A stretch of 64,000 nt of DNA from Candidatus Bathyarchaeota archaeon. Lineage in GTDB: Archaea > Thermoproteota > CALKCG01 > B24 > DRYS01. The first letter of the stretch is position 1; each line of letters opens with the position of its first letter. This document shows positions 20,837 to 62,975 of the stretch, in pieces. The translations under genes and the position numbers were made by a program. The notes under the pieces were generated by a model. That model was not told the DNA's origin. It saw only the letters and a program-made list of their open reading frames with translations, and did no database searches. The stretch covers positions 64,001 through 128,000 of the forward strand of contig JAGTQC010000003.1 in assembly GCA_018396535.1 (NCBI GenBank), written 5' to 3'.

Positions 20837-21061
20837 GATGGATTACCCCTCTACCCCTTCCTCTCCACCCATCCCTAGCTCTTCATAACGGTTAAGATTA
20901 GCAGTAGCGGGGTATGCTATATTCTACTTAATAAATATTTTGTTTAATACGATCCCATATATCGGTGACAGAATATCTACTTGTAATTTATCTTGTAATT
21001 TATTAAGTAAAAATTACGGCTGTATAATATAAAAATAAGAGTAATAATGTAGAAATTACGA

Positions 21062-22189
21062 TTATACTGCTCTATATTCTTCGAACCATTTCTGATACCT
21101 GGTTATAGTAACATTGCTTACACTAGGTTTCCTCCTACTTAAGGCATCTGTGAAATCCCTCATATTTACTGGTCTAGGATAGCTTTTCGGATCATCCACC
21201 CTTCCTGTTTCGAAGAATTCTCTAACCACTATAGCATATGCCTCCCTTACAAGCTCTGTAAGATCATGGAACGTATACCCTTCAGTAACTCTAGCTATCT
21301 TCTCTAGATCTACATCATCATCTAGCATCAGATTCTTCGTAGCTTTCTTCAGCAGAGCTAATCTACCATTATAGTCTGGTGGAGGTATATAGATACGTTT
21401 CTGGAATCTCCGGATGAAGGGTTCATCTAGATCCCAAGGCTTATTAGTTGCTCCTATAACGTATACATAGCTATACCTTCCCTTCTCTAGTATTCCATCC
21501 ATCTCCTTTAGAAGCTGATTTCTAACCCTAACCTCTCCTCCAACCTCCTGGCTCCTTATCCCCGCTATCGAATCTATCTCATCTATGAATATTATAGCAG
21601 GCTTACCTTGTTCAGCATAACCCCTTGCTTCAGAGAATAAGGCTGCTACATTCTTCTCACTCTCCCCCAGCCATTTACTCATAATCGTAGCCGCATCGAC
21701 ATCGAAGAAGACAGCATCTATCTCGTTAGCTACAGCTGCAGCTAGCATAGTCTTACCGCATCCTGGTGGACCGAAGAATAATATACCTCGAGGCCATCCT
21801 AACGGGAATAGATCAGGCCTCTTTAAAGGGTATACTATAGCTTCGGTTATAGCCTTCTTTGCCTCTTCCAGATCGACTATATCATCCCATCTTATCGATG
21901 GTTTAGAAGCTAGGATAGCCGTGGAAGCTTGTCTAGAAAAATCGCCGCTACCTAGAATCTGAGGTTGAAGTTTAGATCGGAGTTCTTCAACCCTACGTTG
22001 ATAGGCTTTAATCCTCTCCTTATATACATGTATATATGGCAGCTCTGGGTAGTACATGCAGATTCTACTAAGGATTTCTATAGCTCTACTATACTTCTCG
22101 ATAGCTCTATCATACTGTCCACTCCGATCGTAGTCTACTGCTTCTGAAGCACTCTTAACGGCAAGCTCTTCGAGTTCACGCATATCCAT
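21062..22189 (-). CDS. cdvC: Vps4/CdvC AAA ATPase with N-terminal MIT domain
   Basis: MIT (AVDYD...AIEKY..AIEIL), FPLGWPRG, GPPGCGKT, SKWLGESEK, ATNKPWDLD; located in the Cdv operon. Confidence 0.95.
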   Translation of the reverse strand: MDMRELEELAVKSASEAVDYDRSGQYDRAIEKYSRAIEILSRICMYYPELPYIHVYKERIKAYQRRVEELRSKLQPQILGSGDFSRQASTAILASKPSIRWDDIVDLEEAKKAITEAIVYPLKRPDLFPLGWPRGILFFGPPGCGKTMLAAAVANEIDAVFFDVDAATIMSKWLGESEKNVAALFSEARGYAEQGKPAIIFIDEIDSIAGIRSQEVGGEVRVRNQLLKEMDGILEKGRYSYVYVIGATNKPWDLDEPFIRRFQKRIYIPPPDYNGRLALLKKATKNLMLDDDVDLEKIARVTEGYTFHDLTELVREAYAIVVREFFETGRVDDPKSYPRPVNMRDFTDALSRRKPSVSNVTITRYQKWFEEYRAV

Positions 22190-22236
22190 TAACTACACCC
22201 CGTTAACCTTCATTCCTCATATCTATATCGGTATGG

Positions 22237-23061
22237 TTAACGGCTCAAGACTATCTTTCCTTCCTCTTCGAGTGCTTTTAACGCACGAACAACATCCTCT
22301 GGAGATACCTGTAGCTCTTTAGCGCACACCGATATCTTTAAAGCACCTCTATTACTCTGTAAATATTCTAGTATCTTCGTTTTCAATTCGTCGAAACTCG
22401 GTATCGGAGGGCTAACGGACGGCGCCCCCCCGGTTTGGGTCGGTGTAGTTTTTGGAAGTACGGCTTCAGCTTCTGCTACAGGGATTCTCTGATTCTCCAA
22501 CCCCTCCACCGGTAGTTCTGGGAAGCTTTCCCTAATCTTCTGTTCAGCTATGAATGCAGCCTCCTCTATAATCCTCTTAGCTTCATCGTTTAACTCTATC
22601 TCCTCGAGTTTATGCCCGTTTACAACCTTCATCTCGCTAACGGTAGTTATCAATAATCGACTAACCTCCTCTAACCCGTTAGCAACATCTGGTACAATAT
22701 TCGCTATCTGTTTCCTCATCTCTTTTACAAGTCCGAGTACTGGTGCAAGCTGGATCATTAGATCGCTGAACTCCTGTATAGTCTCCAACCTTAGGATTAC
22801 ACGTTCTAAAGCTAGCTGTATGCTTAAGAGTAGTTTAGCTATATTCCTAACTTCAGAGCATTCGTTTGCATACATTTTACTCCTCGCATAATCCTTAGAT
22901 AGATATGCTCCAACGCATCTCTCAAAGATCTCCCTATCTCTACGCTGGAGTTTAGCCATTATGTGTTCTAACCTCTCCTTCTGAGATTCAAGCTTATATA
23001 TTGCTATATTTATACGCTCCTTTAAGGATCTTCTAGGAGATGAGAAGAATTTACGTATCAA
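22237..23061 (-). CDS. cdvB: ESCRT-III CdvB with MIM2-like motif and C-terminal winged-helix domain
   Basis: Snf7 core (YANEC.EVR, LERVILRLETI), FPELP, Pro/Thr linker, wH tail; between cdvA and cdvC. TTG start. Confidence 0.9.
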   Translation of the reverse strand: MIRKFFSSPRRSLKERINIAIYKLESQKERLEHIMAKLQRRDREIFERCVGAYLSKDYARSKMYANECSEVRNIAKLLLSIQLALERVILRLETIQEFSDLMIQLAPVLGLVKEMRKQIANIVPDVANGLEEVSRLLITTVSEMKVVNGHKLEEIELNDEAKRIIEEAAFIAEQKIRESFPELPVEGLENQRIPVAEAEAVLPKTTPTQTGGAPSVSPPIPSFDELKTKILEYLQSNRGALKISVCAKELQVSPEDVVRALKALEEEGKIVLSR

Positions 23062-23090
23062 CCTTCATCCCCCGCCGTCCGTTAGCCCTC
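22407..23090. repeat. Perfect 18-bp GC-rich inverted repeat (arms 22407-22424 and 23073-23090)
   Basis: GAGGGCTAACGGACGGCG at 22407-22424 is the exact reverse complement of CGCCGTCCGTTAGCCCTC at 23073-23090. Confidence 0.92.
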
Positions 23091-23106
23091 GCCTATCTTT
23101 ACCTAT

Positions 23107-23820
23107 CTACTCTTCTAGCTTCACTACCAACGGCTCTACATGTTTAGCTGATGTAACTTCTATCTTAGATTCTACAACACCACCTGTCCTAGCCTCGCTT
23201 TTAACACTACTCTCCACTATAGGTATGAACCCCTTCTCGGCTACATCTATGAACTTCTCTATATCCTCCTTCTCGCTTCTATAGTAGTTTATACCCTTCT
23301 CTATCGTCGATCTAGCTTCGTTGAACGTTTCAGGTAGTATCTCACCTAGAGTGTACTGTAGCTTTAGTACTGCTAAAACGTATTCTAGATCCTTAATCCT
23401 ACCTTCAAGGATCTCCACTCTCTTCTTAAGAGATTCTATAAACGATACCTTCTTGGATTCCAGCTCCTCTATAGCTGAATCATACATAGTCTTAAGCTTA
23501 CTATATGCTTCCTCGGTTATCTCGCCATTCTTGTAAAGTATATCTAGAGCTCTAAGTCTAGCTAGACTTACAGTATATACTCTCTCTAGTATGTTTGCTT
23601 CAACTCTCCATCCATACGTGTATACTAGCCTCCCATTCCTTATCCTTACCCTATCTCCTCTAAGTTTACGATACTCCCCATCGCATGTTTCGACATCGAA
23701 CGTTTCGACTTCATTCTTCGCATTAACAGTGAAACCTACTACCCTACCTAGGTTTCTACCATAGTTATCTACTATAGGTTTGCCAAGAAAATTCTTAACA
23801 TGTTCAAATCTAAGTGGCAA
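23107..23820 (-). CDS. cdvA: Cell division protein CdvA
   Basis: N-terminal PRC barrel (GKPIVDNYGRNLGRVVG), coiled coil, C-terminal EPLVVKL CdvB-binding-like peptide; upstream of cdvB-cdvC. Confidence 0.9.
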   Translation of the reverse strand: MPLRFEHVKNFLGKPIVDNYGRNLGRVVGFTVNAKNEVETFDVETCDGEYRKLRGDRVRIRNGRLVYTYGWRVEANILERVYTVSLARLRALDILYKNGEITEEAYSKLKTMYDSAIEELESKKVSFIESLKKRVEILEGRIKDLEYVLAVLKLQYTLGEILPETFNEARSTIEKGINYYRSEKEDIEKFIDVAEKGFIPIVESSVKSEARTGGVVESKIEVTSAKHVEPLVVKLEE

Positions 23821-23832
23821 GATATAACCCCC

Positions 23833-24459
23833 CTATATCTTCCTATTAGCAGACTCCTTCGATGGCACTTCTGTAGATGGTATCTCTGGTAGAGCCTCCT
23901 TCATCTTCTGTTCAGCTACGAAAGCAGCCTTCTCCAGTATCTGTCTAGCCTCTTCACTTGCAGCTTCTATCTCCCAGCTTCTACCAGTAGCTTCTCCTAC
24001 CTCTGCTACTATACCATTAAGCTCCTCTCCTATAGCTCCAAGCTCATAGCTTACCTCAGGTATGATACCTGAGAGCTGCGTCTTAAGTACGTTAACTACG
24101 CTAGCTACAGGAGCCATAACGGCTACTACATCTCCAAACTCCTGCACTGTCTCCAACCTTAGTATAGCTTGCTCTATAGCTAATTGTGCTCTAAGCATTA
24201 TATTCAGCATCTTCCTTATCTCAGCACATTCGTTAGCATACATAGCCGCTCTTATAGGATCCTTCGCTAGCTGTGCTTCTACACACTTCTCGAAGAGGTT
24301 CCTATCTTGCTTCTGCATACGTGTAGCAGCCATCTCAAGCTTATCCTTCTGTATCTTAAGCCTATAGATAGTCTTCCCTATCCTCTCTTTAAGCGGAGGC
24401 TGCTTCTTAAGTAGCCCCGTCCCTTTCTCCCATGCTTTGAATAGATCTCTCGTGCTCAT
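23833..24459 (-). CDS. ESCRT-III paralog (CdvB1/B2-like, no winged helix)
   Basis: Snf7 core paralogous to CdvB, LPEIPS MIM2-like tail, GGAGGTG SD. Confidence 0.9.
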   Translation of the reverse strand: MSTRDLFKAWEKGTGLLKKQPPLKERIGKTIYRLKIQKDKLEMAATRMQKQDRNLFEKCVEAQLAKDPIRAAMYANECAEIRKMLNIMLRAQLAIEQAILRLETVQEFGDVVAVMAPVASVVNVLKTQLSGIIPEVSYELGAIGEELNGIVAEVGEATGRSWEIEAASEEARQILEKAAFVAEQKMKEALPEIPSTEVPSKESANRKI

Positions 24460-24509
24460 CTTAAGCCCACCTCCTAGGCTAAGCCCGAGGGGAGAGAGGT
24501 CGGCGAAAC

Positions 24510-24525
24510 TATAAATACCATTTTA
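24510..24525 (-). promoter_or_regulatory. BRE/TATA promoter of the ESCRT/Cdv operon
   Basis: Reverse strand TAAAATGGTATTTATA about 50 nt upstream of the first ATG. Confidence 0.5.
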
Positions 24526-24689
24526 ACAGTATCTATCAAAATATGCACATTACATAGGTAAATGTTGATTTTACCGCTAAGATACTTGGATCATTACATA
24601 CATACTACAGTAATACTCAAATTATATCTAGAGTATTCGGAGTTGTAAATTTATGAACAAGTTTCGTTAAAATAAATGATTGACCCGAC

Positions 24690-25379
24690 TTGAATAGGAT
24701 AGTAGCTATACTAGGTGGAACTGGTAGTCAGGGTTTCGGTTTAGCTTTAAGATGGCTTAAGGCTGGTGAATATGTAATCATAGGATCCAGATCTAGGGAG
24801 AAAGCTCAAGCTAAAGCTGATGAAGCTAGGAGGATACTAGGTAATGGAGTAAGGGTTGAAGGTTGTACTAATAGTGAAGCAGCTGATAAAGCTGATATTA
24901 TCGTATTAACTGTACCATTCGATGCTCAACTTAGTATAATTAGAAGGATAGCGCCATACCTATCCCAAGGGAAGATCCTCGTAGATGTTACAGTCCCATT
25001 AGCATCGATTATAGGAGGAGATCCGTGGAGGATCCTATACCCATGGGATGGCTCTGCAGCTGAACAGGCTGCACGCTATATTCCTAAAGGTGTAAGGATC
25101 GTATCAGCTTTCCATACTATAGGCTCTAGCATACTGTACGATCTAGATAGAGAGGTAGATTGCGACGTATTGATATGTGGTGATGATGTAGCAGCTAAAC
25201 GTATAGTCGCAGAGCTTGCTGAAGAGATACCTGGTGTTAGAGCGATAGATTGTGGTCCACTAGAGAACTCTAGGCTAACAGAATCTCTAGCCTCCCTGAT
25301 GATATACCTCTGTAGACTGTACAATGTTAAAGCTGTAGGTGTAAGGATTACAGGTATACGTAACCTTAGATCTATCTAG
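24690..25379 (+). CDS. npdG: NADPH-dependent F420 reductase (Fno)
   Basis: ILGGTGSQGFGLALR, IGSR, VDVTVPL, GSAAE, VSAFH, DVLICGD. Confidence 0.9.
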   Translation: MNRIVAILGGTGSQGFGLALRWLKAGEYVIIGSRSREKAQAKADEARRILGNGVRVEGCTNSEAADKADIIVLTVPFDAQLSIIRRIAPYLSQGKILVDVTVPLASIIGGDPWRILYPWDGSAAEQAARYIPKGVRIVSAFHTIGSSILYDLDREVDCDVLICGDDVAAKRIVAELAEEIPGVRAIDCGPLENSRLTESLASLMIYLCRLYNVKAVGVRITGIRNLRSI

Positions 25380-62486: not shown

Positions 62487-62975
62487 CTAGACAGCTTCTA
62501 AAGCTTTAGCATCCTCCTCAACCCTACGTTTAAGATTAACCCTATACTGTATAAGCCTCTCCCTAACATCAGATCTAGATAAAGCTACTATCTCAGCTGC
62601 TAATACCGCTGCGTTAACAGAATTATCGACGCCTACACATGCTACAGGTATACCTGGAGGGGATTGGATAGAGGATAGGAGAGCATCCAAACCCATGAAG
62701 CTCCTATTCAACGGTAGCGAAATAACAGGTTTAATAGTATACGCGGCAATCAATCCGGGAAGCATAGCGGATAAACCAGCTATAGCGATAAATACTTTAA
62801 CACCGTTAGCATCAGCCTCCTCCACGATCTCCCTTACCCTATCTGGGTGACGATGAGCTGAGGCTACTGTCAACAAGTATTTCACACCCAGCTCCCTTAA
62901 TATTCTACATACCGCTTCCCCATACTCTCTATCAGATAGACTACCCAGTACTACTAGAACATCCACATCATCCAA
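62487..62975 (-). CDS. purE: N5-CAIR mutase/AIR carboxylase
   Basis: GSLSD, SAHR, AGLSAMLPG, DALLSSIQSPPGIPV. Confidence 0.95.
   Translation of the reverse strand: MDDVDVLVVLGSLSDREYGEAVCRILRELGVKYLLTVASAHRHPDRVREIVEEADANGVKVFIAIAGLSAMLPGLIAAYTIKPVISLPLNRSFMGLDALLSSIQSPPGIPVACVGVDNSVNAAVLAAEIVALSRSDVRERLIQYRVNLKRRVEEDAKALEAV

Follow-up and report, generated by a model that had tools for sequence, protein, structure and literature searches.

In the fold-back inhibition of hok/sok and in the coupled genes rplJ–rplL and infC–rpmI, distant RNA segments pair and keep an initiation region silent until it is opened by processing or by translation. In phage MS2, the Min Jou interaction and the kinetic control of the A-protein likewise depend on a helix that passing ribosomes open or that folding delays. 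The coding arm of the Min Jou interaction lies in the upstream gene, so that the two genes are coupled; the helix that joins it to the initiation region comprises about 7 bp formed over about 310 nt (PMC12143590). In Bacillus subtilis, a coding segment resembling an anti-Shine-Dalgarno (anti-SD) sequence can pair with the 5′ region of its own mRNA hundreds of nucleotides upstream, and 12-mers of this type placed more than 500 nt into the coding sequence still lower protein by 44% (Gill et al. 2025, PMC12697547). These bacterial elements were engineered, are 8–12 nt long, target the SD itself and are selected against in genomes (PMC12697547). Stable structure behind a stop codon, as in ribosome termination structures, which are local folds, insulates against re-initiation (Chemla et al. 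2020, PMC7518266).

The cdvB mRNA described here combines elements of these systems. With a probability that we put at about 97%, the mRNA in this genus has a selected helix of 17–21 bp that joins the spacer upstream of cdvB to a linker-coding segment about 650 nt downstream. As in the B. subtilis case, a coding segment hundreds of nucleotides downstream pairs with its own 5′ region, and a core of SD-like and anti-SD-like sequence is common to both; in contrast, the cdvB helix is natural, longer, archaeal and kept by compensatory change, and it ends just 5′ of a working SD. It shares with the Min Jou interaction the long-distance pairing of a coding region with an initiation region, but its coding arm belongs to the very gene whose initiation region it pairs with, downstream of that region, and the operon is a cellular one. 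Like a ribosome termination structure it is a stable structure soon after a stop codon and could insulate the next gene, although its partner lies about 680 nt downstream and its formation would thus be delayed. Unlike hok/sok, rplJ–rplL and infC–rpmI, it involves no antisense RNA, toxin or known repressor, and its 3′ arm is within the coding sequence. A literature search whose scope took in only the smaller part of the subscription journals found no report of such an interaction in an archaeal mRNA. The helix differs from the MS2 and bacterial pairings in being intragenic, long, and compensatorily and non-synonymously maintained, in an archaeal division operon.

The cluster is encoded on the minus strand of the window, the 64,000-nt stretch of DNA analysed, and runs in the order ESCRT-III paralogue, cdvA, cdvB, cdvC. 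The first gene (23833..24459) encodes an ESCRT-III protein without a winged helix, and is followed by cdvA (23107..23820; PF18822), by cdvB (22237..23061; ESCRT-III with a C-terminal winged helix, 274 aa, UUG start) and by cdvC, the Vps4 ATPase (21062..22189; MIT, AAA+ and Vps4_C). The cdvB gene lies between cdvA and Vps4, as expected for the winged-helix CdvB of a cdvABC operon, and its homologues carry the name CdvB at JGI; the winged-helix domain itself (about aa 227–273, 22243..22383) gave a weak Pfam match, below the cut-off. The cdvA–cdvB–cdvC operon of Sulfolobus has the same gene order, a winged-helix CdvB and a paralogue lacking the winged helix, and its known control is by transcription and proteolysis (PMC12909875; 10.1101/2024.02.06.579148). 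There the proteasome clears CdvB at division, and the winged helix controls the cyclic degradation of the protein (PMC12909875). A third ESCRT-III paralogue, more distant and unlinked, is present in this assembly (1.41 Mb, 93% complete) at C14:22854-23327. In two of the homologous loci a gene of the cluster is split into two called genes (cdvB in L073, 218-977; cdvC in L037, 1735-2862), probably through assembly or sequencing errors.

A reading made from the sequence alone had pointed out an exact 18-bp inverted repeat with 648 nt between its arms, and both values are correct: minus-strand 23090-23073 is the exact reverse complement of 22424-22407. The SD at 23072-23065, the UUG start at 23061 and the linker peptide are also as that reading described them. 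The 5′ arm (23073..23090) occupies positions –29 to –12 relative to the cdvB start, within the 46 nt that separate the cdvA stop (23107) from the UUG. It begins 16 nt past the stop, opens with the SD-like GAGGG, and its last base adjoins the putative cdvB SD (23065..23072), which was assigned as such from its sequence; this SD is conserved in the homologue alignment and has the form GGAGG in L033. The 3′ arm (22407..22424) carries the anti-SD-like CCCUC end and corresponds to CdvB codons 213–219, in the linker between a MIM2-like PELP motif, read from the sequence, and the winged helix downstream. Directly before the 3′ arm is a G-run (22425..22431) encoding Gly-Gly as GGG GGG, and within the arm is a stop codon, UAG or UAA, in the –1 frame (22412..22414).

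The 18-mer is unique in the assembly even when up to four mismatches are allowed. When the strongest pairing of each leader with its own coding sequence was ranked over 1152 open reading frames of the assembly, cdvB came first at –38.3 kcal/mol; the runners-up were a self-palindrome at –31.6 and then a pairing at –21.7, and the median was –10.2 kcal/mol. It was also first of the 1678 uninterrupted helices of at least 15 bp, with loops of 60–1500 nt and G-U pairs allowed, found in the whole assembly. Elsewhere in the genome, C1:39970-40136 contains an inverted repeat of 57 bp without mismatches, whose arms are 53 nt apart. Within the window, the longest inverted repeats that are imperfect (296-1563 versus 21339-21892) reflect homology between the Vps4 gene and a Cdc48-like AAA gene on opposite strands.

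Local misassembly, raised as a possible refutation, is ruled out by contigs from sequencing runs. A DNA contig (X6), possibly from the source sample, spans 20900-24700 with zero differences. A contig from an RNA run (X14, record 21), representing a 98%-identical strain, is colinear over both arms, where it has one change, at the inner terminal pair; such contigs neither prove a single transcript nor exclude an origin from DNA. The depth in X14 is 57 over cdvB and 4–16 over its neighbours, values that cannot be used to rank genes, and the contig over cdvB ends at 23214, in adapter. Between 21881 and 23214, A>G changes on the mRNA strand are over-represented among the differences of this strain from the window (17/35). 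RNA editing was rejected as the cause: most of these changes are alleles shared with the genomes of relatives, and are therefore polymorphism.

Homologues gathered from genomes and metagenomes provided seven distinct genus-level sequences, with 82–97% protein identity to the query; two further sequences merely repeat variants already in the set. All seven keep the helix, as 17–21 bp. RNAalifold, given the whole 887-column alignment, finds it unaided, and both sides have changed in seven of its 18 pairs; among all 235 predicted pairs there are 15 such pairs, these seven included. Of the 126 cells in register, all but two are paired, and these two lie at a helix end or beside one. Simulated independent evolution on the cdvB tree, with the number of variable columns matched and draws taken from finite pools, gave 21.1 ± 5.0 unpaired cells, and none of 200,000 draws was as low as 2. 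The earlier statement that the repeat is very unlikely by chance is thus borne out, both by this null and by the genome-wide ranks, and the compensatory changes that it proposed to look for in relatives were found in both arms, together with wobble changes. Where only one side of a pair has changed, the result on the mRNA strand is almost always G-U or U-G: there are about five independent changes to G-U, as opposed to a single A-C at a terminal pair. One homologue (L031) carries a U-G pair, intermediate between C-G and U-A. These changes point to selection on the RNA, and specifically on the mRNA strand. Changes in the 3′ arm include non-synonymous ones (S/N, V/A and S/P). Taken together, the alignments strongly support a long-range RNA pairing. 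It is predicted to hold at 80–90 °C, with a mean pair probability of 0.96–0.99 at 80 °C in the predicted fold of the whole mRNA.

A more distant homologue (L034, 65% identity) has a core of 8–9 bp at the same two places, extended outward through two internal loops. Its duplex energy alone is marginal (–39.5 versus a null of –30.8 ± 3.7), and the duplex counts as evidence because its position and core match the helix of the genus. In all eight sequences the invariant core is the SD-like GAGGG paired with the anti-SD-like CCCUC, and the 5′ arm fills the spacer from the cdvA stop to the cdvB SD. The arm begins 13–18 nt past the cdvA stop among the homologues and the helix ends 0–2 nt before the G-run of the SD; in L034 it ends about 12 nt before the SD, near –26. 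Five of the seven genus sequences start cdvB with the weak codon UUG.

The helix is restricted to the genus or at most the family. Close relatives have been deposited as ‘Ca. Bathyarchaeia’ from hot springs; the lineage may be a small sister class rather than core Bathyarchaeia, since the GTDB class of this genome gave only 16 genomes. Among other families of the class and phylum no equivalent helix stood above codon-shuffle nulls, apart from a marginal case in L013 and unreplicated single cases, and the ESCRT-III paralogue of the cluster has no comparable helix above the same kind of null. The marginal case, from another family, is a 14-bp helix in L013 and L014 (genomes G005 and G008) that pairs the actual cdvB SD with coding sequence at about +444. 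It is weak against codon shuffles (p 0.02 and 0.22), and one of its pairs is A-U in one genome and G-U in the other; the same control may have arisen there independently. Candidates in L015–L017 were not homologous to one another, and one in L071 was not significant. The purF leader (C8:140137; L065) has the same core with a 15-bp partner in its own coding sequence at +85, but the pairing is absent from G001 and G002 and is therefore probably due to chance. The cdvB genes of other families in the class use as their SD a GGAGGG that follows closely on the cdvA stop, and the 5′ arm may for this reason derive from an ancestral ribosome-binding site. CdvB in those families (L004–L017) has an N-terminal extension of about 15 residues with a conserved Trp, which is absent in this genus; cdvB of L015 likely starts at AUA, and in family f3 (L004–L011) cdvB mostly has UUG starts and, apparently, a local hairpin within codons 1–10.

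The helix leaves both the SD core and the start codon uncovered throughout; only the upstream SD-like motif is covered, and by the strict definition, in which SD or start codon is paired, it is not an interaction that occludes the ribosome-binding site. The arm at –29 to –12 would overlap a 30S footprint of the bacterial kind, which is assumed here for archaea. Equilibrium folding at 70 °C, a model that leaves coaxial stacking outside, gave a slightly higher probability of an unpaired SD when the 3′ arm was present, in all members of the genus. A local hairpin is predicted between the SD and early coding sequence (23035..23072) and could stack on the long helix. It is not stronger than a synonymous null, is predicted to melt by 85 °C, and is compatible with the long helix, so that the two do not form mutually exclusive folds. 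No second conserved conformation of the cdvB leader was found, as a riboswitch or other two-state element would have, and Rfam gave no match for the helix region at E ≤ 1.

Several further features of the leader were considered. The sequence-only reading had noted a five-codon mini-ORF overlapping the start; it is present as described (23068-23051), its AUG forming part of the SD. A regulatory role for it was rejected as its frame changes among the homologues, being in frame with cdvB in L003, and the mini-ORF is an incidental by-product of the AUGA of the SD. L001, L002 and L031 have an in-frame UGA two codons ahead of the start, and a longer N-terminus or a non-canonical start codon within the arm was rejected on that account. 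Re-initiation behind the helix, which would yield a free winged helix, was rejected because several homologues have UUA in place of the in-frame UUG there. Inspection by eye of the alignment of the cdvA 3′ region showed no conserved internal TATA box.

The mechanism that we favour, at about an even chance, is that the helix acts as a self-limiting clamp on cdvB translation. On the nascent transcript the leader would be free until the linker is transcribed, and cdvB could be loaded de novo or by ribosomes finishing cdvA. Because the partner lies some 650–680 nt downstream, the helix should close only when the 3′ arm has been made and is free of ribosomes. Once closed, it would bury the SD-like GAGGG together with the 5′ half of the region on which the 30S subunit lands, as far as the SD, and ribosomes could no longer pass from the cdvA stop to re-initiate. 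Those already translating cdvB would reopen it briefly when crossing the linker, so that a busy message would stay on and an idle one would turn off, and the clamp would limit the CdvB made per transcript. The 3′ arm is probably located in the linker owing to the tolerance of the protein for amino-acid changes there. As CdvB must be destroyed on time in Sulfolobus, a brake on its synthesis makes sense, and by this analogy a clamp would suit a ring protein that has to be cleared for division. The precedents for repression and for a block to re-initiation are bacterial. Points against the clamp are that the helix spares the core of the SD, that folding at 70 °C predicts the SD to be at least as accessible with the 3′ arm as without it, that the SD hairpin does not exceed its synonymous null, and that the helix of L034 stops about 12 nt short of the SD. 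Of the earlier proposal of a long-range RNA switch controlling CdvB initiation, the RNA pairing is thus upheld by the compensatory and wobble changes, and control of initiation appears to be the best mechanism; a switch is not established, because the helix spares the SD core and start codon and the leader has no second conserved conformation.

Several rival roles for the helix were considered. It could set the fate of the mRNA, not initiation, as a roadblock to 5′–3′ decay or as a processing signal, so that cdvB, with or without cdvC, outlasts cdvB1–cdvA, or so that a panhandle fragment is stabilised. That the helix is very stable, lies where two genes meet and leaves the SD free is consistent with this, as are two β-CASP/RNase J-like matches in the assembly, which lie below the family cut-off, and long-range pairing with the ribosome-binding site alters decay in bacteria (PMC12697547). 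However, no RNase III was found in the 93%-complete genome, no U-tract follows the 3′ arm, and the panhandle fragment would be without a stop codon, and we regard this role as unlikely. It is more doubtful still that the helix favours correct initiation, by masking GAGGG as a decoy or vestigial SD, and perhaps also by bringing the downstream G-run into competition for the anti-SD in early cdvB, which would free the true SD. The invariant core is exactly such an SD-like/anti-SD-like block, SD accessibility rises with the 3′ arm throughout the genus, the GGG GGG is invariant, and an AUG lies 7 nt behind GAGGG in L003, L031 and L033. Yet the increase is slight, L001, L002 and L037 lack the decoy AUG, the invariance of the G-run carries little weight when 31% of fourfold sites are invariant anyway, and losing a decoy through a point mutation would cost less than covering it with 18 bp of helix. 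Stalling or frameshifting that yields a truncated CdvB is a minor possibility. The helix might be a roadblock at which ribosomes pause and slip –1 at or before the G-run, giving a CdvB of about 217 aa without the winged helix, which would bear on CdvA binding and the timing of degradation. The GGG GGG directly before the arm is followed four codons on by the –1-frame stop in all seven genus sequences, the stop is retained through the S/N change, only 58 of about 2130 Gly-Gly pairs are encoded as GGG GGG, and the domain that would be lost is the one governing cyclic degradation in Sulfolobus (PMC12909875). Against this, a conserved in-frame X XXY YYZ heptamer is missing from the stretch 5–9 nt ahead of the helix, the G-run sits just 1 nt away, and L034 keeps the helix core but has neither the G-run nor the –1 stop at that place; the bases of the stop are constrained by the helix in any case, and the cluster already has a paralogue without a winged helix. 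We therefore consider frameshifting improbable. We give equally little credence to a dual device, in which the helix times the loading of cdvB and also diverts some ribosomes to the –1 frame, giving two forms of CdvB. If true, one gene would yield both a CdvA-anchored, cyclically degraded CdvB and a form lacking the winged helix, amounting to RNA-level isoform control of the archaeal ESCRT-III division ring.

The geometry of the helix resembles that of pre-rRNA processing stems, and it might be a stem for the splicing endonuclease, by which the segment coding for the ESCRT-III core is excised or circularised. The lineage does have an mRNA intron, in cbf5 (C1, about 62860-62900), with a clear bulge–helix–bulge (BHB) and an 11-bp inner helix. 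A relaxed BHB scan detected this positive control and missed a second one. No conserved BHB or BHL register was found at either end of the helix in the eight homologues, the RNA contig runs colinear over both arms, and no spliced or circular joint, whether by skipping or back-splicing, was present at the arms in the contigs, which drop rare forms. Such processing is very improbable. The least probable explanation, and one to which we attach almost no weight, is an element at the level of DNA: an invertible segment, as the sequence-only reading had suggested as an alternative, or arms homogenised by template switching without function. The repeat is perfect on both strands in this genome, which has one serine recombinase, on another contig. 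About 700 nt after this sole serine recombinase gene, at C11:34576-34654, two copies of a 16–18-nt palindrome flank the start of a transporter-like gene, and the palindrome also matches C9 near 116818. The G-U changes at cdvB are specific to the mRNA strand and therefore point to a conserved RNA duplex rather than a DNA element. No inversion joint occurred in the contigs of four runs, the orientation is identical in all homologues, no recombinase gene is nearby, a search of the 93%-complete assembly yielded no tyrosine recombinase, and inversion would break cdvB.

Whichever of these roles it has, natural compensatory variants make the function of the helix directly testable, and scans for covariation between leaders and their own coding sequences can detect elements that Rfam and local folding overlook. 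A kind of pairing that bacteria avoid is here retained even at a cost in amino acids, and the presence of a selected helix in cdvB suggests a third, RNA-level layer in the control of archaeal ESCRT-III division.
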